Position numbers and translations under genes: made by a program
Notes under the pieces: model-generated
What the model saw: the letters and a program-made list of their open reading frames with translations, nothing else
Databases searched by the model: none
What the model was told of the DNA's origin: nothing
Part shown: piece by piece, positions 23,220 to 61,873 of the stretch
How the letters are laid out: every line of letters starts with the position of its first letter
Numbering within the stretch: position 1 is the stretch's first letter
IMG/VR virus record: IMGVR_UViG_3300019762_000005
Span: 1-64,000 of that record
Direction: 5' to 3' (one strand)
From: a virus
DNA length: 64,000 nt

Positions 23220-24740
23220 TTAGAAATTAGAAACTGCTAATTGCATGTCAATTATTTTCGTTGGATCTTCGATCATCATTCCTCCTGCCTTCATAAAGTG
23301 CACTTGGTATCCATCTACTGACGATACTGCGAATGAACTCGCTGAGTTCTTCTTAGTACCTGGAGAGAACGGATCTCTCATCCCTGGTAAGTACTTCCAG
23401 ATTAGGTCATCATAACCTTTGGCAGTCGTTCTGTAAACACCTGCTTCTTCTCCGAATCCCATTGTAATCATTCTATGTGATTCAATAGTTCCTTTTCCAT
23501 CTGGATGTCTACGAGAGAAGTGAGTTTCATCATCGAAGAAGTCGATAATCTCAACAGTTAAACGAATACCATTGTAGTACTCATACTCGTTGAATTGGTA
23601 TCCATATCCTAACGTGTTCTTAGAACCTAAATTACTAGGACTAGTAGACTTACTAGCGAACCCGTGATTGATGATAGTCCATCTACTTGAAGCTTTAGCC
23701 TCAATCTGCTTGTGGATTTCAATTGCTCCCCATTCACCAGTCATAACATGTACGTGACGTTTATCACGAGACATCTTACCAATAGACATATCCAGGATTA
23801 ACTCCATGTGGAAATCTAAATCGTAAGAGTTATAGTAGTGACGATTTGATGGTGCGATTTGCTCGAAGAAACCTGCACCTGCTTCAATAGCAAATTTAGT
23901 TTTATCGTCAAAGTTTAAGTACTTGTGGTCAGAACCCCAGTTACGCTTACCGTAAACTTGCATTCTCGCAAACATCTCTTCACATTGGTGATGAGCAACC
24001 ATATCTTGATAGTTGATCCATACCTTTTCTTGAATCTTTCCACCATCAGCAGAGAATCCAAATTCTAAAGGTTCGTTATCACCTTTGTTAATTACGTTAC
24101 CAGGAACTTCATACTCCATTCTCATTTGAGAAAGTCTGTTTTCCATTCTCCAAGGAGACGTAAATGTAGGCTTAGCACCTTGGTAAGATAACGTTGAAGG
24201 AGTAGCTCCATAGAATTTAGAGAAGCGAATACCTCTTACTAATTCTTGAACTGGAACGGCAATTCTTAAGTTTGCGTTCAATAACTCTACTTCATACTTG
24301 AACAAAGAATCTTCTCCGTAAGCACGCTTTACTAAAAAGTGGTAATCATCTACCTCTCCTTTTAATACGTTTGTTTCTTCGAAAAGCCCTTCTTTAAAGA
24401 CTAAGATGAAACGTCCTCTTTGAGCTCCTATCACTGCTGGGAAGTTCCCTGCTGATACTGACTCTCCAGTTAATGTTTCTGCATCCTCTAATGGAATGTT
24501 CTTTTCTTCTTGTCCTTTCAGCATCCACTGATAGAATCCGTTTTCTTGAGTAACCTCTTTTACAGGAAATCTTGATACAAACTCTCTAAGCTTACCAGAA
24601 AGGTTATTCTTATAGATGCTTCTAATAGCTGTATCAATTAACTCAGGCTGTTGTTGGTACAACGTATAAAAATGATTATCGGTAACTAAACCGTTGTAAT
24701 CAACTGCTTCATACATTTGTAATGGAAGTAATTTTGCCAT
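23220..24740 (-). CDS. Major capsid protein
   Basis: 506 aa; GLVTDNH, GAGFFEQI, TGEWG, GMRDPF, SSVDGY motifs of crAss-type MCP. Confidence 0.9.
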   Translation of the reverse strand: MAKLLPLQMYEAVDYNGLVTDNHFYTLYQQQPELIDTAIRSIYKNNLSGKLREFVSRFPVKEVTQENGFYQWMLKGQEEKNIPLEDAETLTGESVSAGNFPAVIGAQRGRFILVFKEGLFEETNVLKGEVDDYHFLVKRAYGEDSLFKYEVELLNANLRIAVPVQELVRGIRFSKFYGATPSTLSYQGAKPTFTSPWRMENRLSQMRMEYEVPGNVINKGDNEPLEFGFSADGGKIQEKVWINYQDMVAHHQCEEMFARMQVYGKRNWGSDHKYLNFDDKTKFAIEAGAGFFEQIAPSNRHYYNSYDLDFHMELILDMSIGKMSRDKRHVHVMTGEWGAIEIHKQIEAKASSRWTIINHGFASKSTSPSNLGSKNTLGYGYQFNEYEYYNGIRLTVEIIDFFDDETHFSRRHPDGKGTIESHRMITMGFGEEAGVYRTTAKGYDDLIWKYLPGMRDPFSPGTKKNSASSFAVSSVDGYQVHFMKAGGMMIEDPTKIIDMQLAVSNF

Positions 24741-28496: not shown

Positions 28497-31100
28497 CTAT
28501 TTAAGTATGCCCATTTTTTTAAAGTAGTTGCTCTGTAGGAAACTCTTTTCTACTTTGGTTGCTTCAGTCTTTATAGCTCTGTATTGAGTCTGGTCATGCC
28601 ACATTAACATACACATAGCTGATACCCTATCAAAGTTGGCATCTGGATTGTAAAGGATACATTCCTTAAGAAGTGCTGGGAACTTTATTGTACTTAACAT
28701 CCTAACGTCGCTACTCTTATTAATCTTCTCTAACATCCAAGATTTAAAGAATCTAAGACCAGTTTCATTTATAGGACCAGATGCATTTATACCTTTTGAA
28801 GTATTCGTTCCAGCTTTGTAGGTGTCTGTATTTCTAAGATGAGGAGGGGTTTCTGCTAGTAAGTATGTCTGCTTTCTGTTTTCGAAGTAAGTGTATAACC
28901 CTGGTAAATTCTTCTCATACATTAACGTACCATTGTAATATAGACATAATTTTCTACACATCTCGTAGAAGTCATTAGGATCATCTGTACGACCTGTATA
29001 TTCAGCAACTATTCTACGTGTGAATCTATTCATTACAAATACCGATGTTAGCGAGTCTGTTGATGATACTGCTTTATCAACTGTATCTCCTCCTAACAAG
29101 TAAGTTCCTGCTGGAACTTGTCCATCTACCTTTTGAGGCTTCTCTGAAATTTCTAATGCTCCAACTTTGTTTAGTGATTTCTTTGACAGTGGATAATCTC
29201 TAATTGGTTCTAATTCTGTGTCATTTTTAAACTCTACTTCTCCAGCTTCATTGAACTCCAGCTTACCAACAAAATTAGCATCTAACTCTGTACTACTGTA
29301 TTCTAATTCAGTAAGTGTGTCTTTAAGATCTGCTGCTGGAAAGAATCCTCCTTCAGACACTAAGAATATTTCTGACGGAATAAGAGGTCTGTTAATTATG
29401 AAGGAAAAGTACTTCTCTTTAGAAGATCTCTTCATTTCTTCCCTTCTGTCCTTCCAGTACTTCTCAGCCATAGTGAAGTTGGTTAACTTGTTTGGACCTT
29501 CTTTGAATCTGTTTACTGCCATTGATGCAGGAACGAAGTATCCAATCTTCTTGGATCTATTCTCCCATTGGTCGTGAAATGCTAAACAGTTGTAATCTTC
29601 TGGATTTTCAAATATCTTTTTAAGGTGAGTTACTGAGTTTCCTTTTACAAATCCTCCAGTACCAAACATATATACAGTTCCGTATTGTCTACCATCATCA
29701 GATACAGTATCTTCCAGTCCTCCAAGAACTTCCTCGATATTATTCATAAATCCAACTTCCTCAAGCGCAACCAGCGATGGTCTTGAACCTGCAGCTGCTA
29801 ATGGATCTTTCTCGAATGTCCTATGTATCAGCTTAGAAGCTGACTTTTTAGCCTCTACTGTTTGCTCTGCATTCTTGAACGAACCTTTGCTAGGAACATA
29901 AAGTGGAGACGGATAAAACTCTCCTCCAAACCATATTGATCCTGGTAGATTGTCTAATCCAATCGTAGCTTTACTTAGGAGCTCCATAGAATATTTGGCC
30001 TCTATAGCACCTACAAGAGTCTCTGATGCGAGTGGTGTTTTATTTCTTTTATTCTCCAAATAGAAGTCATAATCAATAGCTCCGTCAAACATCCAGTTAT
30101 GTCCAATCCATACTCCTGCATTGTATGATTTACCCGTATTGTGTTGAACTACATAGTCTGACTTTACAAACAAGTGATCCCCGTCAAGCTTGAATCCAAA
30201 AAACTCTCCTTTGCCTATGTACTCCATATCGAATGAAGATTCCTGCACATTGCTACGATTCGTTAACCCTTTTATCTTTATACTCGACTTATAGAGCTTT
30301 ATTGATTGCAACAAAGATTGATGTTTGAACACGATTTTGGTTCTGATATTTATGTGTTTTCCGTAGTTTGAAACCTGTAATTTATGGTTACTATTTGTTA
30401 CAAATTCATCAAATCCTCCTGTTGTAGGTTTTATCTTATACAGGTCATCTATTCCAGAGTGAGTCCATTGTACATTTCTAGGGCCTCCATCTGGACCCAT
30501 GACTACATCTCCTTTTACAATATCTTGCACAAGCTTTATAGTTCCATCGTACATGACAACCTCAGTATCTTTACCAAAGCAATCTCTACTCTCCAGATCA
30601 ATCACGTTCATTGCTGAATTCTTGTATTGAGGTTTACCCATGCTACCTTTAACATGAACCCTCCTTAAGTATTCTCTGGCTGTGACGTATTCCTTTCTTT
30701 GGCCGTTAGCTTTAAAAGCCTCTGGTACTCCTATCTTCAGCAACGCTTCGCTACCAAAATCCCGTACACCTTGCTCAAATCTAAAACAAGTCTCTTCTGT
30801 ATCTCCTTCAAATCCAGAGAACCCTCTAGCTTCAGCAAGGTTCAAATGCTTATCCCATTCAAGATCACGAATGTACGGCCTACCTAATATCTTTCCGATA
30901 GATTTTTCTGAAGACATTTTGATATGCCAAACGTTAGCAAAAGTATATAATGTTCCTGGCATCCACTTTCCGCCAACCCACATTCCTTCTATACATTTAC
31001 GCTTGACATCTCCCCAATAAGCCAACCTTTCGTACCGTTGAGATACAGGATTGTAACTAGGATGTTCCTTCGTTATAAAGTTCTGAGTGTTATATAGCAT
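28497..31100 (-). CDS. terL: Terminase large subunit (intein-containing)
   Basis: Walker A SRD|TGKS split by intein, Walker B VALEEVG, FGTGG, RNase H-like GGDT...EKN...NFDRV nuclease motifs. Confidence 0.93.
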   Translation of the reverse strand: MLYNTQNFITKEHPSYNPVSQRYERLAYWGDVKRKCIEGMWVGGKWMPGTLYTFANVWHIKMSSEKSIGKILGRPYIRDLEWDKHLNLAEARGFSGFEGDTEETCFRFEQGVRDFGSEALLKIGVPEAFKANGQRKEYVTAREYLRRVHVKGSMGKPQYKNSAMNVIDLESRDCFGKDTEVVMYDGTIKLVQDIVKGDVVMGPDGGPRNVQWTHSGIDDLYKIKPTTGGFDEFVTNSNHKLQVSNYGKHINIRTKIVFKHQSLLQSIKLYKSSIKIKGLTNRSNVQESSFDMEYIGKGEFFGFKLDGDHLFVKSDYVVQHNTGKSYNAGVWIGHNWMFDGAIDYDFYLENKRNKTPLASETLVGAIEAKYSMELLSKATIGLDNLPGSIWFGGEFYPSPLYVPSKGSFKNAEQTVEAKKSASKLIHRTFEKDPLAAAGSRPSLVALEEVGFMNNIEEVLGGLEDTVSDDGRQYGTVYMFGTGGFVKGNSVTHLKKIFENPEDYNCLAFHDQWENRSKKIGYFVPASMAVNRFKEGPNKLTNFTMAEKYWKDRREEMKRSSKEKYFSFIINRPLIPSEIFLVSEGGFFPAADLKDTLTELEYSSTELDANFVGKLEFNEAGEVEFKNDTELEPIRDYPLSKKSLNKVGALEISEKPQKVDGQVPAGTYLLGGDTVDKAVSSTDSLTSVFVMNRFTRRIVAEYTGRTDDPNDFYEMCRKLCLYYNGTLMYEKNLPGLYTYFENRKQTYLLAETPPHLRNTDTYKAGTNTSKGINASGPINETGLRFFKSWMLEKINKSSDVRMLSTIKFPALLKECILYNPDANFDRVSAMCMLMWHDQTQYRAIKTEATKVEKSFLQSNYFKKMGILK
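30138..30581 (-). mobile_element. Mini-intein (148 aa) in TerL Walker A
   Basis: Starts CFGKDTEV, block B VTNSNH, ends VQHN followed by Thr; no homing endonuclease. Confidence 0.92.
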
Positions 31101-39731: not shown

Positions 39732-39842
39732 AGTCAAGTGGCGGAGTTGGTTTCAACGCTCCACTAAATAAAGTGGCAACTGAGTAGTTTAATTATAGCT
39801 AATTAAATAAAAGGTACGCAGGTTCGAATCCTGCCTTGACTA
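39732..39842 (+). tRNA. Atypical tRNA-like RNA (111 nt, no assignable anticodon)
   Basis: Acceptor AGTCAAG/CTTGACT, D arm GCG..TGG..CGC, T arm GCAGG-TTCGAAT-CCTGC; abnormal anticodon loop; long variable region. Confidence 0.65.
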
Positions 39843-41554: not shown

Positions 41555-42394
41555 ATGGCTATAAAGAAGAAAAAACCAATGAAAATAGTAGGACAAGAAG
41601 CTTTAATAAAAGAAGTAGGAAATGTCTTCAAGGTATTTAAAGCTTCAGAAGGAGAGTTAAGACCACATTTTATACTTACTGGACCAAGTGGTTCAGGTAA
41701 GACAGTAACAATTCAAAGTATGTGTGATGAGCACGAGTTGAATTATGTAGAAATTAACGCTGCTCAGTTAACAAAAGAAGGAACGAGTGGTAATTCATTA
41801 TCAAAAGCTTTAGGTCCTTTAGGTCAAAGCCAAGGAAAGATGACAGTATGTTTTGTCGATGAATTCGATAAGCTTTTTATATCTGGAAATAGTAATGATA
41901 GTTCAGCACATGAATCATCAACTGGAGTTCAGAATGAATTTCTAAAAGTATTAGAATCAGATACTACGCAAGTATTTGGTGATTATGGAAAATTCATTAG
42001 CATTCCTATCAAGAATGTATTATTCATTTTTGCTGGAGCGTTTAATGGAGAAGAGCATATCACAGTTGATAGACTTCGAGAGATAGGAATTAAGACAGAG
42101 TTTTTAGGTAGAGTTGGATTAGTGTATAATACTCAAAAGCTTTCATTGGAGGCTTTGTATACAATAGTTGAAAACTCTCCTTTACTTGCTAAATATCTTT
42201 TGATATATAAAGACGTAAAACGAGAAGATGTAGAATCAACTATTAAAGACTATATTAAAAATAATTTCGAGTTGAACACTTTAGGTGCTAGACTAATATC
42301 TACGCTTATTCATCAATACTTCATTAAAGGAGGTAAAATTGGTGAAGACGAGGTTAAAGAATTAACTTTTCAAAAGACTTTAACTCTTGACTAG
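41555..42394 (+). CDS. ClpX/HslU-like AAA+ ATPase
   Basis: IVGQE, GPSGSGKT, FVDEFDKL, GVQNEFLKVLE, LFIFAGAF, EFLGRV, LGAR. Confidence 0.85.
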   Translation: MAIKKKKPMKIVGQEALIKEVGNVFKVFKASEGELRPHFILTGPSGSGKTVTIQSMCDEHELNYVEINAAQLTKEGTSGNSLSKALGPLGQSQGKMTVCFVDEFDKLFISGNSNDSSAHESSTGVQNEFLKVLESDTTQVFGDYGKFISIPIKNVLFIFAGAFNGEEHITVDRLREIGIKTEFLGRVGLVYNTQKLSLEALYTIVENSPLLAKYLLIYKDVKREDVESTIKDYIKNNFELNTLGARLISTLIHQYFIKGGKIGEDEVKELTFQKTLTLD

Positions 42395-42874: not shown

Positions 42875-42948
42875 GTGTCGTTAGTAGAGTGGCCTAGCAC
42901 GTCTTGTGTAAAAACGAGGAAACATTGGTTCGAATCCAATACGGCATT
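42875..42948 (+). tRNA. tRNA with 8-nt anticodon loop (undetermined/pseudo)
   Basis: Acceptor GTGTCGT/ACGGCAT, T arm ATTGG-TTCGAAT-CCAAT, anticodon stem TCTTG/CGAGG with loop TGTAAAAA. Confidence 0.7.
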
Positions 42949-46362: not shown

Positions 46363-48141
46363 ATGAAAGACGAAGAATTATTAAGAAAAGCAAATTGGCT
46401 GTATCCAAAAGGCACAGTATTTAACTCTTTAGGAGGGGTGAAAAACATTACAGTTGATGAGTTGAACTTAAAAAAATCAAACACAAGAACCATAGAATGT
46501 AAAGAGGGATACCTTTATAATAAAGTAGACGATAAATGGGCTGAGATAGTTTCAAGACCAAATCAATACTTCCGAGTGTCAGATGTAGGAGAATACTACC
46601 CTTCAAGATCAGAAGGAAAAAAATATCCAGGATACATACCTGAAAAATCAATGACTACAGGTCTTTATAAAGTCATAGGAAGAGAGTTTTCAGAAAATAT
46701 AGGAGAACTTTTAGTACTTTCAAATAAAAGTGGAGTGTTTTTTTACAAAGGAACTTCAAGACATCTTGAAGAAATTTCTAAAGAAGAGTATGGAGGTACA
46801 CCTGCAAATAGGTATAAAGGAGATTTAAAAGGATTCCCTACTGAAGTAGTAGAGAAAATGCTAGAATTTCAAGTAGCTCAAGGTAATAAAAGAGATGTAA
46901 CTGTGTTTGAAAATGATAAACGGGGGGTAAAAGACGATGGTGGTTTTGATTGGCGTAGTGACAACATTGTAGGTATTCCAGATTTTTTCAGTAGAGTTAT
47001 AGGTGAAAGAGATTTTAGCTTGTTCTTTAAAGTATTTCCTAATCCAGAGACTTTCTCAGGAAAGATAAAGGGATGGCCTAAAGAAATTGTACATGCTATG
47101 ATCTCTAACCAAGTAAAACAAGGTAACAAGCCAGATAAATCTATATTCGAAGAAATTCCATCAAGAAATCTTTATAATAGAGGATTTGACTGGGATAAAT
47201 CTACAGAAGGTTCACTTTTATGGGAAAAAGTTTTAGCAAATGGAAATCATAAAGCTTTCTTTGATAAAGATATTGAAGAAAGTAAGCCTGATGTAGATCT
47301 AAAAAACTTAGAAGAAGTAAAGAAAGCTATATTATCTGGAGAATTGTGGATAGATAATAATTCTAAAAAACTTAAACCTGAGGATCTAAAAAGTTTAATT
47401 TCAGAAGATACCAGAAGTAGGTGTAGTTACAAATATTACTATAAAAATTCTTTGAATGATAATATAGGGTTTTCAAATTCAGATAAGAAGAAATCGTTAA
47501 TACCAACTATAGAAGCTAAAGATCTTCAAAAAATGTTGAATGTACGTGAAGAGTTTAAAAAAGGAGAGTATATAGTCCTAATAGAAGATAATGGAAGTTC
47601 AGCTTTTAAAGGAAATCACTGTTATAAACAAGCTTGCAATAGAGGTCATATTTACGTAGAAATATCTTCTAGTCAAATTAAAAACGGTCAATGGGCTATT
47701 TATAAATTCAAAGACAAAGACAAAACTTGGAGGTATGCTACGATGTTAGAAATAGCAGAGTACAACGAAAGAGGCAAGCCTTATGACGTTAGTGAAGTGA
47801 AGCCTTTAGAATTTAAAACTGTGCCAAGATCAGCACACGCTTCTAAAGGAGGTAGACCTTCTAGCTTTGGACAAATTGTATTGTATGGAACTGGAGGTGA
47901 AGTGAATGGAAAAGGTTTCTTTGAAAAACAATTTATAACAGGTGTTGATCCAATAATTGAAGATTGCTCCGACTTTTTAACAGAGTATCCTTTTACTACT
48001 GAAGAGTCGTTCAAGAAGAAGAATTGGTCAAGACAATTAGTATCAGATCATTTTTCACCAATAAAAGAAAAACAAGAGGCAGAGGTAAGCCTTCGATTAC
48101 CTAGTGAAATAAATATTTACAAACATTTAAAAAACCATTAA
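46363..48141 (+). CDS. Mosaic multi-domain protein A (592 aa) with TerL-like motif segment
   Basis: Internal duplication (KG[FW]PxE[VI]VxxM..QVxQGNK..GFDW x2); modules shared with 51942..53723; TerL-like motifs at aa 492-550. Confidence 0.75.
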   Translation: MKDEELLRKANWLYPKGTVFNSLGGVKNITVDELNLKKSNTRTIECKEGYLYNKVDDKWAEIVSRPNQYFRVSDVGEYYPSRSEGKKYPGYIPEKSMTTGLYKVIGREFSENIGELLVLSNKSGVFFYKGTSRHLEEISKEEYGGTPANRYKGDLKGFPTEVVEKMLEFQVAQGNKRDVTVFENDKRGVKDDGGFDWRSDNIVGIPDFFSRVIGERDFSLFFKVFPNPETFSGKIKGWPKEIVHAMISNQVKQGNKPDKSIFEEIPSRNLYNRGFDWDKSTEGSLLWEKVLANGNHKAFFDKDIEESKPDVDLKNLEEVKKAILSGELWIDNNSKKLKPEDLKSLISEDTRSRCSYKYYYKNSLNDNIGFSNSDKKKSLIPTIEAKDLQKMLNVREEFKKGEYIVLIEDNGSSAFKGNHCYKQACNRGHIYVEISSSQIKNGQWAIYKFKDKDKTWRYATMLEIAEYNERGKPYDVSEVKPLEFKTVPRSAHASKGGRPSSFGQIVLYGTGGEVNGKGFFEKQFITGVDPIIEDCSDFLTEYPFTTEESFKKKNWSRQLVSDHFSPIKEKQEAEVSLRLPSEINIYKHLKNH

Positions 48142-48142
48142 A

Positions 48143-48538
48143 ATGGCAGGAAAAAAATTAATGACAAGGTACAAAGATGAATTGAAGAAATCTTCAGAAG
48201 ACATCTTAATTGAAACTTTAGAGCATCGTGTAGAAGACTTCAGAGATAATACTGATGAAACTATCGACAAGCTAAAAAGAGAGAAGGAAGTAGAATTTCC
48301 TAAATTAATTAAAAGAGCCAAAGCTAAGGTAAGCAAAGCAAAAGAAGATCTTAAGAAGGTTAAAACTTTTGGACCTATGAGTCATAAAAACTTTGACTCA
48401 TACATAAGTGCGGTCATCTCTGCTGAAAAAGAAGTTTCGGTAGTAGAATCAGCATTGAACGTTCTTGAAGGTCAATTGAGCTCTACAGAAGCTCAATTAG
48501 CTTTTTATGAAGATATTAAAGAGTCAATTTCTGACTAA
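48143..48538 (+). CDS. Coiled-coil partner protein A
   Basis: Aligns by eye with 53726..54166. Confidence 0.7.
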   Translation: MAGKKLMTRYKDELKKSSEDILIETLEHRVEDFRDNTDETIDKLKREKEVEFPKLIKRAKAKVSKAKEDLKKVKTFGPMSHKNFDSYISAVISAEKEVSVVESALNVLEGQLSSTEAQLAFYEDIKESISD

Positions 48539-48544
48539 TTGATA

Positions 48545-48920
48545 AAGGAACTGAAACCCTTTCAGCCTTAATATTGAAATTACATAGTAATATGTAGAAC
48601 ACCTCCGATGTAATCCGTATGCGGAGCAAAGGTGTTGGGAGTCGGGAGCAAGGCTTAAAGGTCGTGATCCATCTATTCGTCGCGAAAACAAGTATTTAGT
48701 TACTGAGACAATAGGTGGATGCTAAGAAAAGGAACACCTCTGTAACGAAGACTAATTGAATCGCTATTATTAGTGAGAATATTACTTAGTAAGAACAAGT
48801 GTAGGTTTTTAATGTGCTGAAAATAGACAGGAATAATAGTCACCTGCGTAGCTATATTGTTACTACCGTCGTTTAATCGTCGTGAGTTTTAAACATATCA
48901 AACATTTGCGTGCACATTTT
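48545..48920 (+). ncRNA. Putative large structured RNA(s)
   Basis: ORF-free ~400 nt with many stems, e.g. AACACCT/AGGTGTT, ATCCATCTATT/AATAGGTGGAT, AATGTGC/GCACATT. Confidence 0.5.
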
Positions 48921-48950
48921 TAATTTTACAATTCAACAAAACAATATATT

Positions 48951-49145
48951 ATGTATCACATCAAGAGAGATGGAGCTTTATTCTGTCAAACAAAAAGAAA
49001 CAAATCTTTTATTAAAGCTAGGTATAACACAATCTCCTATAAAGATGCTCACAAGTTAAGACTTATGAATGGATGCTGTGGCGTATGCAAGAAAGTGTAT
49101 TTTGAGAAAGTCTCAAAAGAATTAATAGTTGTAGAAACAGAATAA
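48951..49145 (+). CDS. Small putative Zn-binding protein
   Basis: H..C..CxxC pattern. Confidence 0.6.
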   Translation: MYHIKRDGALFCQTKRNKSFIKARYNTISYKDAHKLRLMNGCCGVCKKVYFEKVSKELIVVETE

Positions 49146-49168
49146 TTTCTATATATTTGAAAACAATT

Positions 49169-49417
49169 ATGACAACAACAATAATCATATCTAAAATACT
49201 ATTTGTCGTATCCTTATGGGTTATAGCTGTTGTGGCAGATTACTTAAACAACTTAGACAATAGAGGTCTGAAACTAAAGAGGTCGCAGAACATACTCTAT
49301 ATATTCAAACAGCCGACACTAAGGTCTTGGATATATAAGATAGATCTGGGGTTTACACCTTGGATCGTTTACCATGATGGGTTAACATACGACCAGTGCA
49401 TTACTCTGAAGAGCTGA
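49169..49417 (+). CDS. Small membrane protein (likely start ATG 49169)
   Basis: N-terminal TM; TATATTTG element at 49152-49159 upstream. Confidence 0.55.
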   Translation: MTTTIIISKILFVVSLWVIAVVADYLNNLDNRGLKLKRSQNILYIFKQPTLRSWIYKIDLGFTPWIVYHDGLTYDQCITLKS

Positions 49418-49487
49418 GTGCTGTTGTAAAAAAGTATAAAAAAAAACGGGTAGGACTAAATCGCCCATGAAATAATATTGAAAACTA

Positions 49488-49527
49488 AAAAAAACCTCTT
49501 TGTATGATACGCAAAGAGGTTTTTTTT
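49488..49527 (+). terminator. Intrinsic (bidirectional) terminator
   Basis: AAAAAAACCTCTTTG-TATGATACG-CAAAGAGGTTTTTTT. Confidence 0.85.
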
Positions 49528-49545
49528 ATGCTTAAAAACAAGATT

Positions 49546-49947
49546 ATGAAAAGAAATAAAAAAGTAGTAATAGTTTGTGGTCCAGGAATATTATCTCACA
49601 TTAGAGAAGTAAATGCAGCTGCTAAAGTGAAAGCTCTATCGTCTAGCGATTTAAGAACGATAGATAGTAAACCAAGATTTGTAACTTCTTTAGCAGGTGC
49701 AAAACAACTAGAGGCGTGCCTTGAGAAAGAATTCAATAATACCCTTAGAATGCCTGCTGAACTACTAATAAAAGCTAATCCAGGAGCAATAGGTCCTAAT
49801 GTAAAATTGCTAGAACATTATGATAAAGCTAATTACTTTAGAGGAAAAGTTAGCAAGGTTAACTGTAAGAAAGAAGAAGCATCATTTGCTAAAGCAAGAA
49901 AGAAACGTAAAAAAACAAAAAAATGTCGAAAAAGGAAGAAAAAATAG
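49546..49947 (+). CDS. Basic hypothetical protein (likely start ATG 49546)
   Basis: Lys/Arg-rich C-terminus. Confidence 0.6.
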   Translation: MKRNKKVVIVCGPGILSHIREVNAAAKVKALSSSDLRTIDSKPRFVTSLAGAKQLEACLEKEFNNTLRMPAELLIKANPGAIGPNVKLLEHYDKANYFRGKVSKVNCKKEEASFAKARKKRKKTKKCRKRKKK

Positions 49948-50207
49948 AAATGCCAAAAAAGCATACAGATCTAGTTGGTACTAAGAGGATATTTTCTGGA
50001 GGTCTTTTTTCTAGCAATAGAGATGAGCCAGAAGCAGAATACGACATCTTAAAATGGAGATGGGGCAGTGCTAGTATATGTGACATGAAGACTATGAAGC
50101 TTAAGCATCCAACTATAGAATACCTCATCAAGAAGGAAGGAATGAAGCGTAGCAGATGGACCAGAGGTTTTCCTGTTATAGAGATAGAACTTATAGACGA
50201 ACATTAA
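49923..50207 (+). CDS. Hypothetical protein
   Basis: Co-oriented ORF. Confidence 0.6.
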   Translation: MSKKEEKIEMPKKHTDLVGTKRIFSGGLFSSNRDEPEAEYDILKWRWGSASICDMKTMKLKHPTIEYLIKKEGMKRSRWTRGFPVIEIELIDEH

Positions 50208-50219
50208 AATACTTTGATT

Positions 50220-50477
50220 ATGTCAGAAAAAACAATACCAGTATCAGTAAAAAGAGAACTGAAAACTTTAGGAGTTATGTATGGTGAATCTTTTTCTGCT
50301 ATAATGGAAAAGAAATGCACCTATATATACATAGAAGAGGATTTATCTAATCTGTCAAAATACGAGATTGATTTAATGTTTAACATTTACCCAGCTCTAT
50401 TAGACTACAGTTATATATCTAAAAAAATACAAAATGAGATCCAAGAAGCATTGGATTTTGTAAAAGACACATTATAA
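50220..50477 (+). CDS. Hypothetical protein
   Basis: Co-oriented ORF. Confidence 0.55.
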   Translation: MSEKTIPVSVKRELKTLGVMYGESFSAIMEKKCTYIYIEEDLSNLSKYEIDLMFNIYPALLDYSYISKKIQNEIQEALDFVKDTL

Positions 50478-50481
50478 TCAA

Positions 50482-50703
50482 GAGGGAATGACGGAATGGT
50501 AGACGTATAGCTTATCGGGCTAGAATGGAAAGGAGACGTGCTTAGGGTGCACAAGTCAGGTAAATACGAGTTACCTAAGACTTTCCAATAAGATTGATGA
50601 AAATATTAACGATTATCCGTACTAAGCTACCTGTTTACAGGATAGATAGCGTGCTGACTAACATCAATTATAATTCGTGCAGGTTCGATTCCTGCTTCCC
50701 TTA
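50482..50703 (+). ncRNA. tRNA-scaffold RNA with ~155-nt structured insertion (222 nt)
   Basis: Acceptor GAGGGAA/TTCCCTT, Leu-like D arm ACG-GAATGGTAGA-CGT, T arm GCAGG-TTCGATT-CCTGC; insert with two multibranch domains. Confidence 0.7.
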
Positions 50704-50722
50704 CTAAAACAACAACAACGAC

Positions 50723-50971
50723 ATGAAATTAGAGATTCATCCAGACGGAGAGTGGAATACAGAAAGATATGAATACAAAGGTAGAACTATAGAAATCAAA
50801 TCTAGGGATGACCACGGAATAAAGGCTCATTGTTACCACCAAGGTAAGGTAGTGTTTACCCAAAGATTTGTATTTATTAGACCAGCAAGACTTCTTAAGA
50901 GAATGGAAAGAAGAATTGACATGTGGATTAGTGGAGAATGGACTCCAAAGAAGTTACTAAAACAGAGATAA
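50723..50971 (+). CDS. Hypothetical protein
   Basis: A-rich leader, co-oriented. Confidence 0.6.
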   Translation: MKLEIHPDGEWNTERYEYKGRTIEIKSRDDHGIKAHCYHQGKVVFTQRFVFIRPARLLKRMERRIDMWISGEWTPKKLLKQR

Positions 50972-50972
50972 T

Positions 50973-51203
50973 ATGTGGAATGTAAAAAAAATAGAAGATT
51001 TGAACTTTGTTTTAATATCTAGTCACAATCAATGGTGTCATTTTAGAGGTCATGGATTTGATGTTCATGTAAATTTAAACACTAAAAACGGAAGTGGCAA
51101 TTACTTCAATTTCCATTCCTACAAATCAAATTTTAAAGGAAATTTTAAAGCTATAATAGAAACAGAAGAAGAATTCAAATCTTTGTTAAAAATGATACAA
51201 TAA
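50973..51203 (+). CDS. Hypothetical protein
   Basis: Co-oriented ORF. Confidence 0.55.
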   Translation: MWNVKKIEDLNFVLISSHNQWCHFRGHGFDVHVNLNTKNGSGNYFNFHSYKSNFKGNFKAIIETEEEFKSLLKMIQ

Positions 51204-51421
51204 TGAAATTCATATCAACATCAGAAAGCTTTCCAAAAAACAACAATGTAAAAAACGTGTTAGTCAAAACAATAACAGGTAGATACCTTGTTACTAGGTA
51301 TTCGACGTATAATAGGTTTTTTAAATTTGATCAATACGACGAACCAGAATTTTGGCAATCAGGAGGTAAAACTTTTAAAAAAGCAAGCATCGTATCTTGG
51401 TGCTATATAACAGAAGATTGA
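51203..51421 (+). CDS. Hypothetical protein (DUF551-like pattern)
   Basis: FISTSESFP..VLV..IVSW pattern. Confidence 0.55.
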   Translation: MKFISTSESFPKNNNVKNVLVKTITGRYLVTRYSTYNRFFKFDQYDEPEFWQSGGKTFKKASIVSWCYITED

Positions 51422-51442
51422 CATTTTAAAAACAACAACAAC

Positions 51443-51934
51443 ATGAAAACATTAAAAATATTATTAGTACTAGCAATTGGATTAATGATTCAATCTTGCT
51501 CAAAAGAAAAGAAACTTGAAAGACAAGTTGAAAAGAAAGGATGCCTTGGAGGCGGAGTAGTAGGCTACGTAGTAGACGAATGTACATTAACAATACCTAA
51601 TATCATATCTGTAAATGGAGATGGAGTTAACGAAATGTTTTCGATAACGGTTCACAACCTAAGTGAAGATGATACTATTATAGAGAGATTAATAATCACT
51701 CATAATGGAGGTGCGTTGATGGATAACAATACTAGAGTTTGGCAACCGATAAGAAGCATCGTGGATGAAGGTTTTTACACCTACAGATACAGAGGGTCTA
51801 TTAACGGAGAGACGTTTGATTTACAAGGAGATTTCACACTTGTAAAATACCAAAGAGCCATTAAGAAATGTGAACAGTGTATAACCGTATACGGAAACAG
51901 TATCGCTAATGATCCTGGATTAAGTTGTAAATAA
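51443..51934 (+). CDS. Lipoprotein with CHU_C / T9SS type-B CTD-like domain
   Basis: Lipobox MIQS-C; IPNIISVNGDGVNEMF..W..G.YTY..G.FTLVK. Confidence 0.75.
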   Translation: MKTLKILLVLAIGLMIQSCSKEKKLERQVEKKGCLGGGVVGYVVDECTLTIPNIISVNGDGVNEMFSITVHNLSEDDTIIERLIITHNGGALMDNNTRVWQPIRSIVDEGFYTYRYRGSINGETFDLQGDFTLVKYQRAIKKCEQCITVYGNSIANDPGLSCK

Positions 51935-51941
51935 CAATGTT

Positions 51942-53723
51942 ATGAAAATAGAAGATTTAAAACCTGGTCAATTTATCGCTATAGAAAGCTGCCCAGGAGG
52001 AGTTTACATGAGTCCAGATGGGAAAATATCAGGAAACAGCATTAAAGCTTTGTATGAAGACTTATATTTCACTTGTTCTCTTGAAGTAGATGAAGAAGAA
52101 GGAGACGAACCTCTAGGAGAAATAACAGTCCTTAATAACGATTCTTTAGAAGCTATACAATTGAAAGCTTGCATTGAAAAAGACAAATATGTTAGCCTAG
52201 AAGATGCTGCATTAGATTACGCTAGAAAACATTATCCTGTTGGAACTAAATTCAGTCCAGCTCACACCGACGATACTTACGATAAGGAAAATCAATGCAT
52301 AATCACAAGTGATGGTCAATTCCACTTAGAATACGGGGTTATTTGCAACTCTATTAATGGAGATTGTTGGACTAGCTTAGAAAATCCTAAGTATGGAAAT
52401 ACAACAAAGAATAGAAATGTATTCTATAAAGGAATATGGGCTAAAAAAGAACCAGCTAATGAAGAGAGAGCTCAGTCTATACGCAAACATCCGATAATTA
52501 AGAAAGGAATGTATATTGTTATTCTTGATGATGCTAAAGGGCTTATCCCAGGAAGACACGTTTATAGGCAAAAAAAAGACAACAGTAGAGTTTGTCCAGA
52601 ATTAGACATTATAGAAGGTAATAATAATGAAAGAATAAGTGTTAAACCTTGGAGATACGCTACTGAAGAAGAAATAAAACATTACGATGCTATAGGTAAA
52701 CCTTATGATGTTACAATGCCTAGAGCTGTAGTGGATTCAGTTTTAGGTAAGTTTACTGTTGGAAAATGGTATTCAAATCCAAAGAACAGGCACATGGATT
52801 ACGGAAGAGTTTCAAAAGCTGAAGTAAAGGGCTCTTCCCACAGATACAACACGATTCATTTTGACTCAATTGTAAAAGATGGAGTTCAGTCAGATTATAA
52901 AGGTACTCAAAGTAACCTTAATTTCGATAGAGAAATGAGAGAGATAGATTTTGATGATATTCCTATTAAGTCTAATAATGGACAAGAAGAGCTTATAGTT
53001 GGAAAATGGTATTATTACAATAAGTATTACATAAAATTCTTAAAAGTAGAAAGAGGGCTAGTAATATCAAGTGAGTCGATAGACGATAAAGGCTATCACA
53101 TATTTAAAGAAGAGCCTTATGGTCCTCTTGAGATGAATAAGGGACAGTATGAATCTGCAAACATGAGAGGTGTAGAAATATTACTACCATCTGGACATCC
53201 TGAAAAGAAAACTATAACTCTTAGAGAGCTTAAAGATGGGGAAACGTACTTCTTCGATTACGTAACCGGTAAGTACATAAATAAGATAACCGACAAGAGT
53301 CGTCATCTATGCACTTCAATAGAAGTTTGCGGAGATGAAGAAATTCCAAAGCTTAATACTGGATCTATGTACGGAACAGCACATATTAGAGTTGCAACAA
53401 AGGAGGAAAAGCATTGGATGAATCTTTGTATCAAAAAAAATAAAGGTATATCTTTGTCTGAAGCAAGGTTAGAAGATAAAAAGGATTTAGAGTTAGCTCT
53501 TGAAAAAGAAGAAGGTAAAAAGGAATATGAATTTCCTGGAAGAATAGAATTAAGAATAAGCAACAATAGCAACACAACGGTAAAAACAAAGAAAAGATCA
53601 GTACCGATTAGCGTATCTAAAAGCTTAGAGTTAAAAATAGAGGTACGTACACCTAAAAAAAGTACAGAATTATTAACTAATAAAAGAACCACCTCGTTAA
53701 AAATAAGAGGTAAAAACAATTGA
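51942..53723 (+). CDS. Mosaic multi-domain protein B (593 aa)
   Basis: Shares YP.GT.F...WA and KKG.YIV...WRYAT..EI..Y...GKPYDV modules with 46363..48141; VGKWY repeated. Confidence 0.75.
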   Translation: MKIEDLKPGQFIAIESCPGGVYMSPDGKISGNSIKALYEDLYFTCSLEVDEEEGDEPLGEITVLNNDSLEAIQLKACIEKDKYVSLEDAALDYARKHYPVGTKFSPAHTDDTYDKENQCIITSDGQFHLEYGVICNSINGDCWTSLENPKYGNTTKNRNVFYKGIWAKKEPANEERAQSIRKHPIIKKGMYIVILDDAKGLIPGRHVYRQKKDNSRVCPELDIIEGNNNERISVKPWRYATEEEIKHYDAIGKPYDVTMPRAVVDSVLGKFTVGKWYSNPKNRHMDYGRVSKAEVKGSSHRYNTIHFDSIVKDGVQSDYKGTQSNLNFDREMREIDFDDIPIKSNNGQEELIVGKWYYYNKYYIKFLKVERGLVISSESIDDKGYHIFKEEPYGPLEMNKGQYESANMRGVEILLPSGHPEKKTITLRELKDGETYFFDYVTGKYINKITDKSRHLCTSIEVCGDEEIPKLNTGSMYGTAHIRVATKEEKHWMNLCIKKNKGISLSEARLEDKKDLELALEKEEGKKEYEFPGRIELRISNNSNTTVKTKKRSVPISVSKSLELKIEVRTPKKSTELLTNKRTTSLKIRGKNN

Positions 53724-53725
53724 TT

Positions 53726-54166
53726 ATGTCAGAAAATGGAAATGCAGCAGTAGGATCAGAAAACACTAACCCAACTTTAGGAGCTTACGCTAGAGAAGTA
53801 TTAGCTGGACTTAACAAGAGTGATGCTGAAAAAGCTGCTGAAAGAGTAAACGTTTTAGTGGAGAACTACATCATTGAGACTGAAATGCAAATTTCAACTT
53901 TAAAAACTGGTAAACTTCCTCACTTAAACAATGAGATTAGAAGAGCTAAAGAAAGCATTAAAAATGCCAAAAAAGCTGAAGAAAAAGCTATGTTGGATAT
54001 TTTAGGGTCTTCAAGTTACGAAGATTTCATTGGAAGAGTGAATGAAAAGTCTTTAGCTATTGATGAAGCTAAGGAAAGAATAGAAGCGTTAGAAGCTAAG
54101 AAAGTTACTCACGAGGCTGAAATTGCTAAGTATGAGTCTATATTAGAAAAATTCAAAGCTGCTTAA
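53726..54166 (+). CDS. Coiled-coil partner protein B
   Basis: Paralog of 48143..48538. Confidence 0.7.
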   Translation: MSENGNAAVGSENTNPTLGAYAREVLAGLNKSDAEKAAERVNVLVENYIIETEMQISTLKTGKLPHLNNEIRRAKESIKNAKKAEEKAMLDILGSSSYEDFIGRVNEKSLAIDEAKERIEALEAKKVTHEAEIAKYESILEKFKAA

Positions 54167-54194: not shown

Positions 54195-54228
54195 AAATGG
54201 GAGCTGTATATCAGTTCCCATTTTTTTT
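54195..54228 (+). terminator. Intrinsic terminator
   Basis: AATGGGAGCTG-TATAT-CAGTTCCCATT plus T run. Confidence 0.8.
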
Positions 54229-54262
54229 ACCAATTCTGACACCCAAAAAAAAAGATAATATC

Positions 54263-54763
54263 ATGAGAACAATAGAAATGTATTGCGATGGAGGAGCGAG
54301 ACCTACCAATCCTGGAACAGCTGCTAACGCTTTTTGTGTTATAGAAAATGAAGAGTTGTTGGATAGTGATTCTGAATTTCACGAACACGCCACTAATAAC
54401 CAAATGGAACTTAAAGCTCCTATAAATGGGTTGAGGTTGATTGCTTCTATTTTTAAGCAGGAGCCTAAAGAGTCTATGCCTAAAAAGGTACTTATACATG
54501 TTGATTCTCAATATGTAAACAAAGGGATAAGCGAATGGATATTTGGATGGATAAAGAAAGGTTGGAAAACGGCCTCAAGAAAACCAGTCAAGAATAAAGA
54601 CTTATGGATTGATCTACTTAAAGCCTCTGAAAAAGTTCAGAAGATAGGGATAGAAGTAGAGTTTAAATGGGTAAAGGCCCACAATGGAAATAAATTTAAC
54701 GAAATGGTAGACTCAATGTGTACTGAATGCATAACTGTAAATACAAAAAAAAATGAGCAATAA
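54263..54763 (+). CDS. rnhA: Ribonuclease HI (likely start ATG 54263)
   Basis: YCDGG, TNNQMEL, DSQYV, WIKKGWK..PVKNKDLW, WVKAH..NEMVD. Confidence 0.93.
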   Translation: MRTIEMYCDGGARPTNPGTAANAFCVIENEELLDSDSEFHEHATNNQMELKAPINGLRLIASIFKQEPKESMPKKVLIHVDSQYVNKGISEWIFGWIKKGWKTASRKPVKNKDLWIDLLKASEKVQKIGIEVEFKWVKAHNGNKFNEMVDSMCTECITVNTKKNEQ

Positions 54764-57221: not shown

Positions 57222-59042
57222 ATGACAAAGAAAAGAAGTAAATTTTTATACAGCTTGGAGTCTTTTAATGATTTATTTTGCGTTGTTTTTTTAAATACAG
57301 AGACAAAGGTCCACTTGTTTTATCAGATTAGTGAAAAGAATAATATGGTTGAAAAACTACAGAAATTTCTGATTAGCGGTATTCAATTGATAGGATACAA
57401 TAGCATTGGTCATGATTATCAGTTGTTGCACGAAATAGTACTAGCTGATAACAATATAGGGCCCGGTTATATTCGTAAGATTTCAAAAGAAATATTGAAA
57501 GGAGAAAGAGCTATAAGCAATTCCAGTATATTTCCTCAATTAGATCTTTACAGGATAAACGGATATAACTCTAAAAAAATACCATTAAGTTGGTTGCAAT
57601 TTTCTTACGGTAGAAAAGTAATAAGATCTATCCCTGTTCATAAAGATTATCTTTTAAAGAATGTCGACCATCCTTCTATAATTGATAGCTGTAGAGAGAA
57701 TGTAGATTTCTTGAATGAGATTTACGAGAATTCAAAGCCAGCTATTAGAAAAAGAATGGCTTTATCTAAAGAGCTTGGAAACAAGGTAATGAATATGTCA
57801 AACAGTAAAATTGGAGAGTTACTGATAAGGACTGAATTTGAAAAAATATCAGCAAAGACAATTAAAAAAGGAATGAAAACCAGTTCGGTAGAATCTATAA
57901 AACTTTCTGAAGTAATACCTGATGATATTGAATATAATCATGTAGAGCTAAAAAAGTTTGTATCTAGGTTGTCTAAACTTGAAATACATCCAAAAGATAG
58001 TCTTACTACGGATATTGACCTAGACGGACTTGTTATCACATTTTCAAAAGGAGGCTTGCACACCAACGATGTCTCAGGAGTTATAGAGAATACTAAAGGA
58101 GCACTTGAAGAGCATGATGTAATATCAATGCACTCTAGCACCATTGTTAACGAATCTATAGCTCCTAGACATTTAGGTAGGCCTTGGATTAAAGCTGTTG
58201 GAAAAGTTAAAGACATGCGAATGGAGACTATAAGAAAAGACCCTTTAAAGAAAGAGGTGTTTTTCAAAGAAGCCTTAAACGCAGGTTCTTACGGAAAGTT
58301 GAATTATGCTCCATCTTGGCAGTACGACCCTTTAGCCTCCTATAAAACAACGATAATTGGGGAACTTAGGATGTTGGAATTGATCGACAAGCTAATAGCT
58401 ATGGATGTTGAAGTGATTAGTGTAAATAATGACGGTCTAGTATTACATTATTCGGATTGGGATGAAAACCTAGTAGCTGATGTTATAGGTGCTTGGGAGT
58501 CAAAGAATGGATACTCTACAAAGAAAACTACTTTAAAAAAAATAGTTTATAACGGTATAAATAACTATATTGGATTCCTTACTGATGGACATCTACTTAA
58601 AGGTCAATTTGCTATTAACAAGAGCAAAGCTAAAGACAATTCTAGGAAGATAATTCCAATAGCACTGTTTGAGTATTTTGTGAATGGTAAATCCATAAAA
58701 GAAACAATAACCAACCATAAGAATATATTAGATTTTTGTGTTGGTTTGAAAGCTAAAGGTAAGGTGTACTGGATGTCTGACGAAGAAAATCCCATGAAAA
58801 TAGAAAGAGAAGTTATAAGGTATTTCGTCTCTAACGATTCTGTGAAAATATTTGAAGAAGACATTAGAGGTAACAAGATTCCTTTAGAAAAAGGATTAAA
58901 CATTACTATGTTTATGGAGGTTATAGAAGATGTTGATTATAATGTCAATTACAATTATTACATAAACGAATGCTCGAAGATTATTAGATCAGTAGAAGCA
59001 AGAAGAGACGATAAGAATTATAAACAAGAAAAACTATTTTAA
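57222..59042 (+). CDS. polB: Family B DNA polymerase (crAss type) with altered catalytic motifs
   Basis: GYN..HD, GGLH, motif A HDVISMHS, motif B KEALNAGSYGK, YDP, motif C NNDG, NNY, KGQF, C-terminal NYNYYI. Confidence 0.85.
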   Translation: MTKKRSKFLYSLESFNDLFCVVFLNTETKVHLFYQISEKNNMVEKLQKFLISGIQLIGYNSIGHDYQLLHEIVLADNNIGPGYIRKISKEILKGERAISNSSIFPQLDLYRINGYNSKKIPLSWLQFSYGRKVIRSIPVHKDYLLKNVDHPSIIDSCRENVDFLNEIYENSKPAIRKRMALSKELGNKVMNMSNSKIGELLIRTEFEKISAKTIKKGMKTSSVESIKLSEVIPDDIEYNHVELKKFVSRLSKLEIHPKDSLTTDIDLDGLVITFSKGGLHTNDVSGVIENTKGALEEHDVISMHSSTIVNESIAPRHLGRPWIKAVGKVKDMRMETIRKDPLKKEVFFKEALNAGSYGKLNYAPSWQYDPLASYKTTIIGELRMLELIDKLIAMDVEVISVNNDGLVLHYSDWDENLVADVIGAWESKNGYSTKKTTLKKIVYNGINNYIGFLTDGHLLKGQFAINKSKAKDNSRKIIPIALFEYFVNGKSIKETITNHKNILDFCVGLKAKGKVYWMSDEENPMKIEREVIRYFVSNDSVKIFEEDIRGNKIPLEKGLNITMFMEVIEDVDYNVNYNYYINECSKIIRSVEARRDDKNYKQEKLF

Positions 59043-60532: not shown

Positions 60533-60731
60533 AATGACAAGAAAAACAAGAGATTTCGCAGAGTGCGAGACTCACGGTGTTACCAATTTTGAAGAAAATT
60601 CGTTCAAGAACTGTGACGAAAATTGCGAGATCTACAAGATAGGAACTATCACGGAAACTAGAGTAGCGACAACTACTCCTAAAAAGAGACAAGCATGGAC
60701 TCTAACAGAACTGAAAGACAAAAAGGATTAG
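60525..60731 (+). CDS. Small hypothetical protein (start uncertain)
   Basis: CxxH...CxxC; bridges to helicase gene. Confidence 0.45.
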   Translation: MSKMTRKTRDFAECETHGVTNFEENSFKNCDENCEIYKIGTITETRVATTTPKKRQAWTLTELKDKKD

Positions 60732-61873
60732 TCCTTGATTGGTTTTCTGCAAAAATGAAAGGTGTAGTATTAGCTGCTACTGGATTTGGAAAATCAAGAG
60801 TTGGACTACTAGCTATAAAAAGAGCTATAAAAGTCAAGGAATTAAAATCTTGCTTAATAATAGTTCCTTCAATAGGATTAAAAATACAATGGGAAAAGCT
60901 AGTTGCGGAAGCAGGTATTAACATTGTAGATGTAATGGTGATAAATACTGCAGCTAATAGAGCTGAAAATCTAAAGTATGAACTAGTGATATATGATGAA
61001 TTTCATAGAGCTGGTTCAGAGTTTTTTATAAAGGCTTTAGAAATTAAAAAAAAATATATCCTTGGTCTTACTGCTACGCTAGAAAGGCCTGATAACACTC
61101 ACTTGGAGTTGGTAAAAATAGCTCCTGTAATTGGAGAAGTTAAACTTGATGAGTGTTTAATAAAAGGATGGGTAAGTAATTATAGGATACTAAATTTAAT
61201 AGTTCCATTTACTAAAAAAGAAAGAGCAGCTCATGAAACAGCTGTTGGAACTTACGAGTACTACAATAAGCTTTGTACTGGAAATGGTAGATACGCTTTT
61301 GAAAATGCTAGAAGTTGGATTAAAGGTAGTGAGCCTACGTTAAAAAGGCAAGCTGCTAAATATTACAACGCTTTGAGAACAAAGAATGATTTAGCGAAGT
61401 ACAACGTGAACAAGATAGCTGTTATAGAAGACATTGTGAATAATAATTTTAGAGATAGAAAAGGATTCATATTCAGTACTTCTATAGAATTCGCTACCGA
61501 CTTGCAAGGTCTGATAGATAAGAAATCTATAATGTATCATAGTAAACTGAAGAAGAAAGAAAAGGAAAAGGCTGTAAAAATGTTTATTTCTGGGAAGAAA
61601 ACAGTATGCAATGCTGTTCAATCTATGAATGAAGGTCTTGATTTTCCAGACGCTTCTTTAGCTATTATACTAGACTCGGATAGTTCGGTAAGAAAAGCTA
61701 GACAGCAATTAGGAAGAATAATTAGAGCTACTGAAGATCCTGATAAGGTAGCAACGTTAATCAATGTTTGTTCGGAAGATTCCGTAGAAAATGGGTGGGC
61801 GGATAAGAAATTTCAGGGATTAAAAACAAAAACTGTCACTATTGACAAGTTAAAACTAATACTTAATGAGTAA
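60695..61873 (+). CDS. Superfamily 2 helicase
   Basis: ATGFGKS, DEFH, GLTAT, NEGLD, QQLGRIIR. Confidence 0.9.
   Translation: MDSNRTERQKGLVLDWFSAKMKGVVLAATGFGKSRVGLLAIKRAIKVKELKSCLIIVPSIGLKIQWEKLVAEAGINIVDVMVINTAANRAENLKYELVIYDEFHRAGSEFFIKALEIKKKYILGLTATLERPDNTHLELVKIAPVIGEVKLDECLIKGWVSNYRILNLIVPFTKKERAAHETAVGTYEYYNKLCTGNGRYAFENARSWIKGSEPTLKRQAAKYYNALRTKNDLAKYNVNKIAVIEDIVNNNFRDRKGFIFSTSIEFATDLQGLIDKKSIMYHSKLKKKEKEKAVKMFISGKKTVCNAVQSMNEGLDFPDASLAIILDSDSSVRKARQQLGRIIRATEDPDKVATLINVCSEDSVENGWADKKFQGLKTKTVTIDKLKLILNE

Follow-up and report, generated by a model that had tools for sequence, protein, structure and literature searches.

What are the two long open reading frames (ORFs) in IMG/VR virus record IMGVR_UViG_3300019762_000005 that are each followed by a small gene, and do the two pairs represent one system? 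We addressed this question in the first 64 kb (64,000 nucleotides (nt), called the window below) of this 92,675-bp record, which has direct terminal repeats and is rated complete. An initial annotation made from the sequence alone had described the region as a duplicated cassette in which a modular protein carries an array of interchangeable small domains and is paired with a coiled-coil partner. Both long ORFs were intact. They belong to two copies, long since diverged, of a two-gene unit that is conserved in large uncultured phages of crAss-like and other types. The product of gene 1 is soluble and consists of a string of autonomous modules of ~60-95 amino acids (aa) from at least six sequence families, and that of the abutting gene 2 is a constant protein of 115-150 aa. 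We hold this anatomy, and the conservation of the two-gene unit, with high confidence. The two cassettes are made up of the following genes.

46363..48141, plus strand: long module protein of cassette A (P0001, 592 aa), intact by ORF and translation
48143..48538, plus strand: partner of cassette A (P0003, 131 aa), starting 2 nt after the P0001 gene; whole-genome profile search E 1.6e-16
51942..53723, plus strand: long module protein of cassette B (P0002, 593 aa), intact by ORF and translation
53720..54166, plus strand: partner of cassette B (P0004), 148 aa from TTG 53720 or 146 aa from ATG 53726

Each partner had been placed within 2 nt of its long gene. This was correct for cassette A, and in cassette B the P0004 start either overlaps the P0002 stop (TTG 53720) or lies 3 nt beyond it (ATG 53726).

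The module composition of the long proteins was mapped by iterating protein segments as local hidden Markov models (HMMs) against relatives from a large protein collection; E-values from these local iterated searches refer to small databases of ~190 to 1900 sequences. The order in P0001 was A (residues 10-66), B (66-150), C (151-223), C (231-301), D (306-394, no family assigned), E (395-484) and G (485-592). The order in P0002 was an acidic N region (1-91), A (92-145, perhaps to 180), E (182-260), F (270-340), F (350-422), H (426-509) and a basic tail (513-593), and the arrangement of the common modules A and E therefore differs between the two proteins. Charge calculated by segment was near neutral for most modules and +9.8 net for the basic tail of P0002. 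The modules assigned to families were located as follows.

46390..46560, plus strand: module A of P0001 (aa 10-66); third-party profile over the full 57 positions, E 2e-7
46813..47265, plus strand: two tandem C modules of P0001 (aa 151-223 and 231-301; QGNK...GFDW); internal repeat z 14.5
47545..47814, plus strand: module E of P0001 (aa 395-484); profile E 5.5e-35; predicted SH3/KOW-like barrel with C-terminal helix
52485..52721, plus strand: module E of P0002 (aa 182-260); BLASTP to the P0001 copy E 1e-9; profile E 1.2e-27
52749..53207, plus strand: two F modules of P0002 (aa 270-340 and 350-422; VGKWY); F1- and F2-seeded profiles converge, hhalign 99.4%
53217..53468, plus strand: module H of P0002 (aa 426-509); profile E 1.3e-30; common to 10 fetched proteins and to free-standing genes of ~95-115 aa elsewhere

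BLASTP of P0001 against P0002 returned one significant segment, which was module E (residues 398-498 versus 186-270, 33% identity over 101 aa). This ~85-aa module (KKGEYIVL...WRYAT...GKPYDV) reached a Smith-Waterman z of 22 against shuffles, confirming the proposal that the two proteins have short modules in common in different contexts. A second proposed match, ANWLYPKGTVF..KWAEI with ARKHYPVGTKF..IWAKK, was not significant as a direct pair (z 0.7) and was recovered by profile as the ~57-aa module A, with the motifs YPKGTVF...KWAEI in P0001 and YPVGTKF...IWAKK in P0002. A profile made only from third-party sequences matched P0002 at residues 94-114 with E 0.002, over its first 21 positions only, and searches started from each copy converged on the same segments of 44 other proteins. 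Judged by these third-party scores and converging searches, module A is a firm assignment in P0001 and a probable one in P0002. Each protein had also been credited with a private repeat. The QGNK..GFDW repeat of P0001 was clear in a direct comparison of C1 with C2; the two VGKWY units of P0002 were not significant as a pair (z 1.65), and both fell into family F by profile, a family present in 45-52 of the fetched proteins. The nearest full-length relative of P0001 was P0005, at 43% identity. No other ORF of this genome carried these modules, and no membrane segments were found in P0001, P0002, P0003 or P0004. A terminase-like peptide was considered in P0001 residues 492-550 (window 47836-48012) on the basis of one 46-residue BLASTP match to the phage's own terminase near YGTGG; at E 0.006 this match was too weak to decide and the candidate was set aside.

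The two partner proteins are true homologues. P0003 and P0004 were 28% identical over 118 aa (E 3e-5), and we ran the check that the coiled-coil character of these proteins calls for: the alignment scored z 8.0 against plain shuffles and z 8.7 against shuffles preserving the heptad register, and none of 1000 shuffles scored as high. The similarity thus goes beyond heptad bias, as the initial annotation had supposed. Columns conserved in the ~115-aa partner family were G, D, R, Q, L, AK..L and E..L. A phmmer search with P0004 reached genes that follow the module proteins of L030 and L027 (E 7e-16 and 1.5e-9; L-numbers denote phage loci fetched for comparison). A census by a HMMER pass over 1.84 billion representative proteins, clustered at 50% identity, found 503 clusters of partners with E-values of 1e-10 or below. 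All of the best 150 relatives were 107-145 aa long, the listed family members were 93-146 aa, and none of the listed relatives had a Pfam domain or a meaningful name. Among 17 records with a partner match only this genome had two full copies; the others had one strong match, two of them with an additional weak partial match. In a tree of 66 partners, P0003 and P0004 grouped with the partners of L027 and L030 (support 93/92), all four on long branches, with P0004 closer to the L027/L030 partners than to P0003. Given this tree position and the ~25-28% identity of P0003 and P0004, either the duplication is old or the second cassette was acquired separately.

We next consider whether the pairing extends beyond this phage. 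Iterated searches begun from P0003 alone and from P0004 alone, in a set made of the six-frame ORFs of the module loci and the called genes of this genome, converged on the same 15 ORFs, each other included, and all 13 foreign members lay just downstream of a module protein. When loci were fetched with module E, 11 of 20 distinct large module proteins had a family partner next door, L030 having one small ORF between the two, and five more next-door genes (L025, L005, L018, L021 and L007) headed the sub-threshold list of ~1860 ORFs. When loci were fetched with the partner, using a closer subset of partner sequences, a 289-1014-aa ORF lay directly upstream in 29 of 29, and 23 of these carried recognisable A, E, F or H modules; six of the 29 loci came from contigs already among the module-E-fetched ones. 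Across 29 non-redundant loci, positions -1 and 0 each formed one similarity cluster of 27, and any other position was common to at most six loci. The unit of conservation is therefore the pair itself. Together these comparisons indicate that the pairing, which had been predicted to recur in related phages, is conserved in both search directions and well beyond this phage. A full-text literature search returned no description of this cassette.

The modules themselves proved to be autonomous and to occur in shuffled order. Approximately 60 proteins of 370-890 aa in public collections had module E in common with P0001, most of them in the order F-F-E-A after a differing N-terminal region. Scanning IMG/VR with the conserved E motifs gave 32 loci, in which fused modules varied widely in order and copy number (four E in series, A-E-H-A and H-F-E-A being examples) within proteins of up to 1014 aa. 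Other phages had free-standing module genes of ~95-115 aa, often in tandem. The small module genes of L011, L022 and L032 lie in different frames with overlapping stop and start codons, and they are therefore separate genes. The description of an interchangeable small-domain array was accordingly borne out. A crAss-type capsid gene was found in only seven of the 29 carrier records, and in five of the ten whose completeness reaches 90% or more, demonstrating that the modules are not confined to crAss-like phages. Two further observations concern individual loci. At L008:8010-8612 two single-E ORFs stand in the same frame with one stop codon and one further codon between them, which could be a reassigned or read-through stop and not two genes. 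A DnaJ-type CXXCXGXG zinc-finger insert lies between F and E in L004:6930-8882 (residues 311-347), P0022 and P0033; it matched PF00684 (E 2.6e-6) and TIGR02349 (E 3e-4) and occurred in a few members of the F-F-E-A family.

Cultured phages contained almost none of this material. The C module, also present in P0005 and P0006, was found in gp074 of Bacteroides phages DAC15 and DAC17, the only trace of the modules that we found in cultured phages. DAC15 gp074 (L064:4974-5543) is a 189-aa hypothetical protein amid small hypothetical genes and is ~40% identical to P0001 residues 153-309. The 12-kb region had no megablast match among GenBank phages. In tblastn searches of public phages, P0001 retrieved only the C repeat of DAC15/DAC17, a typical F-F-E-A protein matched a Roseobacter phage over 38 residues and nothing else, and P0004 had no match. 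Exact-pattern scans of IMG/VR with P0001, P0002 and P0005 gave no match. Module E relatives shorter than 325 aa gave no candidate through the word index, and free-standing modules were later recovered through the loci.

Comparison of closely related phages indicated how the arrays change. The phages of L035:2795-4959 and L036:3464-4839 are ~98% identical across the locus and their partner proteins are identical. The last ~33 codons of gene 1 together with the partner gene are 99.6% identical in DNA, and the first ~70 codons of gene 1 are also kept. Between these ends gene 1 differs by in-frame, module-sized insertions and deletions, so that one phage has a 599-aa product containing an E module and the other a 336-aa product containing an F module. 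The same pattern was seen in L037, L038 and L039. Gain, loss and reordering thus affect modules as whole units. Gene 1 products of the main clade (L003, L013, L017, L024 and L036-L049) have a conserved C-terminus of ~25 residues, approximately KPLIENVQSVDVNLRTKK and ending in KF, while the remainder varies, and this C-terminus travels with the partner. L027 and L030 have another gene 1 tail type in common (z 7.5).

AlphaFold2 models were made for module E from a 41-sequence alignment and for P0004 from a 66-sequence alignment. The module E model (predicted local distance difference test (pLDDT) 90.9) had strands at 11-14, 27-31, 37-42, 48-56 and 64-66 followed by a helix at 69-78, and module E is thus predicted to be a five-stranded, strongly bent antiparallel small barrel of ~60-70 residues, of the SH3/KOW type, with an added helix. 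It opens with a KOW-like KKGDYIV strand, and its fold neighbours were generic: SH3 domains, NusG/Spt5 KOW domains, ribosomal proteins, PsaE and the SH3-like domain of RecD2/Pif1. The match to NusG KOW was weak (Z 3.6, root-mean-square deviation 2.5 A over 56 residues). Protein Atlas gave low-scoring leads and helicase 2B-domain look-alikes at a template modelling (TM) score of ~0.55 for module E and nothing usable for the C repeat, and a viral structure library gave only uncharacterised proteins at E 0.05 or higher for module E. In its predicted barrel, its KKGDYIV strand and its nearest neighbours the module resembles the KOW-type small barrels (NusG/Spt5 KOW, uL24) and the 2B domain of SF1B helicases (RecD2, Pif1). 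It differs from those families in having no Pfam profile match and a best structural Z of only 4.5, in its conserved C-terminal helix and its signature WRYAT..EI..Y...GKPYDV, both absent there, and in being found in shuffled arrays as well as alone, as a ~95-aa phage gene. In Pfam neither P0001 nor P0002 had a match up to E 1, and none of 52 relatives matched a KOW/SH3 family up to E 0.01; a sequence-profile search of the PDB gave no relevant hit.

The P0004 model (pLDDT 89.7) had a helix at 20-29 and then a hairpin of helices 33-90 (58 residues) and 98-145 (48 residues), so the partner is predicted to be a long antiparallel helical hairpin after a short helix. This modelled arrangement may correspond to the PspA/Vipp1/ESCRT-III core, a long antiparallel hairpin (helices 1 and 2/3) after a short N-terminal, amphipathic helix 0, and Vipp1 chains were the top Foldseek rows for P0004 (E 0.11; VIA Z 10.8, within the noise of helical models). 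An assignment to PspA was rejected: the partner is half the length (PspA ~220 aa), is without helices 4 and 5 and has no PspA_IM30/Snf7 Pfam match. Prefoldin was rejected as well, the model having only a short loop (91-97) and no strand between the helices, and the prefoldin VIA Z of 9.8-10.3 being within noise.

To consider what the cassettes may do we examined their setting. The gene layout of the genome is of the crAss-like phage type. Structural genes, reaching ~35 kb, are on the minus strand, and a plus-strand block that includes both cassettes spans 36-76 kb; beyond it a 3618-aa gene and a 1262-aa gene are again on the minus strand. The major capsid protein is only ~31% identical to its counterparts in cultured Bacteroides crAss-like phages, and the phage is therefore a distant crAss-like member. 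The landmarks are as follows.

23220-24740, minus strand: major capsid protein
26046-28457, minus strand: portal
28497-31100, minus strand: terminase
41555-42394, plus-strand block, upstream of the cassettes: AAA ATPase
54195-54223, plus strand: terminator-like hairpin directly after cassette B (12-bp stem and T run), from a consensus scan only
54197-54763, plus-strand block, downstream of the cassettes: RNase H, family match beginning at residue 18
57222-59042, plus-strand block, downstream of the cassettes: DNA polymerase
60695-61873, plus-strand block, downstream of the cassettes: helicase

The cassettes thus lie in the replication gene block and adjoin the RNase H and DNA polymerase genes. 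If the RNase H ORF is read from its first ATG, its opening codons overlap the terminator-like hairpin. The 3.4 kb between the cassettes (48539-51941) contains ~10 small ORFs and an ORF-free stretch of ~380 nt; none of these ORFs has a module and none is similar to another gene of the genome. Rfam tRNA matches above the gathering score were found at 39732-39842 (39.3 bits) and 42875-42948 (33.8 bits), and ARAGORN reported a tRNA only at 42875-42948, anticodon undetermined.

The explanation that we consider best, at somewhat short of even confidence, is that the cassette encodes a variable multi-binder and a constant hairpin subunit directed against host or phage factors. The products of gene 1 and gene 2 would be made together and, somewhat more likely than not, act as a complex. 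The hairpin protein would be the constant subunit, serving in docking, oligomerisation or stabilisation, and the module array would supply variable multivalent binding domains directed at macromolecules of the host or the phage. The cassette would act early in infection, on host or phage factors. Loci of host-phage conflict are expected to show whole-module turnover of the kind observed between near-identical phages. This turnover, combined with the location in the replication block, leads us to regard host takeover or counter-defence as the likeliest role, though we propose it only tentatively.

Several results weigh against this explanation. No result supported a scaffold role for the helical protein in displaying the modules. 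The anti-defence or host-binding role that had been suggested for the modules gained no support from PADLOC, Pfam, PHROGs, NCBIfam or the PDB, none of which gave an informative match for module or partner. The predicted folds matched solved structures poorly, module E reaching at best VIA Z 4.5 (an SH3 domain) and Foldseek E 0.75 or higher, and P0004 having neighbours (HP0958, IpaB, chemoreceptors, Vipp1, prefoldin and Snf7) at Z 12 or less, within helical-model noise. Several complete phages have modules without a detectable partner, and the modules are therefore not dependent on it. Linked inheritance of neighbouring genes means that the joint variation of tail and partner cannot count as independent evidence that they bind. 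Among the best 150 relatives of the partner no fused (Rosetta-stone) form was present. The tails of P0001 and P0002 had no demonstrable match to the main-clade or the L027/L030 tail type. As for the timing of expression, a promoter scan was at chance level and the early-gene leader motif TCCTTAANAA of another phage was not enriched here (3 matches versus 1.8 expected).

The alternative that survives best, although we consider it unlikely, is an accessory role in replication or transcription, in which KOW/SH3-like modules bind DNA, RNA or the machinery and the hairpin oligomerises the array into a multivalent organiser. The neighbouring RNase H and DNA polymerase genes agree with this, as do polymerase or helicase genes near the cassette in some other loci, the strongly basic tail of P0002, and the KOW-like strand of module E with its weak NusG/Spt5, ribosomal-protein and RecD2/Pif1 2B neighbours. 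However, no neighbour is conserved apart from the pair itself, most modules are close to neutral in charge, and the fold matches are too weak to place module E among KOW domains. Nor would a housekeeping factor be expected to swap modules between 98%-identical phages or to be absent from many complete relatives.

Somewhat less likely again is a chaperone and its cargo, the hairpin holding the constant C-terminal tail of gene 1 either to assist folding or to load the protein into the virion as an effector for ejection. The gene order, with a small helical product following a large variable one, is reminiscent of chaperone-substrate pairs, the abutting genes fit matched synthesis, and the conserved ~25-residue tail of the main clade stays linked to the partner through recombination. 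Yet the cassette is not part of the structural gene block, the tail motif could not be detected in P0001 or P0002, nothing resembling a known capsid-targeting signal or chaperone family was found, and the AlphaFold2 model of the partner is without the beta-hairpin of prefoldins.

That the genes have no joint function, being chance fusions of small accessory genes with a partner kept by linkage, we regard as improbable. Modules do occur as separate genes and in genomes without a partner, and adjacent small phage ORFs can fuse by mere loss of a stop codon. Against this, all 29 partner-fetched loci keep the pairing despite unrelated flanks, it spans phages with and without a crAss-type capsid gene, and the frames of 290-1014 codons are open in all of them with tight gene spacing. 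Least credible of all is a toxin with an immunity or antitoxin partner in the manner of polymorphic toxins or toxin-antitoxin systems: a large variable protein is directly followed by a small one, and one family member has a weak match to SUKH_5 (E 0.0036; Pfam label 'SMI1-KNR4 cell-wall'), which we take to be an immunity-type family, but no toxin, nuclease or other enzymatic domain was detected. In polymorphic toxin systems a constant N-terminal part precedes a C-terminal toxin that co-varies with its immunity gene, whereas here the C-terminal tail and the partner are constant and the interior varies, which makes such a pair very improbable.

The multi-binder explanation can also be set beside known systems. 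Polyvalent proteins of phages and conjugative elements reportedly carry many independent domains on each polypeptide and are said to be tools of host-phage conflict. The cassette proteins are similar in being single phage polypeptides with variable combinations of independently occurring domains. They differ in size and content, polyvalent proteins being very large with recognisable enzymatic and anti-restriction domains, whereas the cassette proteins are 290-1014 aa long and Pfam, NCBIfam and PADLOC detected no enzymatic, toxin or anti-restriction domain in them, matching only the DnaJ-type zinc-finger insert of a few relatives; the cassette in addition has an obligatory constant small partner. 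A tail fibre with its assembly chaperone is similar in that a recombining large protein with a more constant end is followed by a small conserved gene. The cassette modules are small globular barrels and not fibre repeats, and a tail-fibre assignment was rejected, the cassette lying among plus-strand replication genes with capsid, portal and terminase on the minus strand at 23-31 kb and having no PHROG structural or tail-fibre match.

In crAss-like and other large uncultured phages, the majority of early and accessory genes have no assigned function. Here two hypothetical proteins become a defined, searchable unit whose signature is a partner family of ~500 clusters, and because whole modules turn over between near-identical phages, the locus is likely to be a site of conflict between phage and host. 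If the replication role were true, the cassette would represent a new multivalent organiser protein. If instead the modules bind or inhibit host factors, the cassette would offer a genomic handle on many new small effector domains, and as host-factor binders they would show how phages combine domains on one constant platform. In its broadest form, which we consider doubtful, this would be a widespread exchangeable effector platform on which the constant hairpin and the constant gene 1 tail carry modules that each capture or neutralise a different host factor. If that is true, families A, C, E, F and H with their free-standing forms would be a catalogue of new counter-defence or host-takeover domains, and two cassettes in one genome would widen the repertoire of modules available to the phage.

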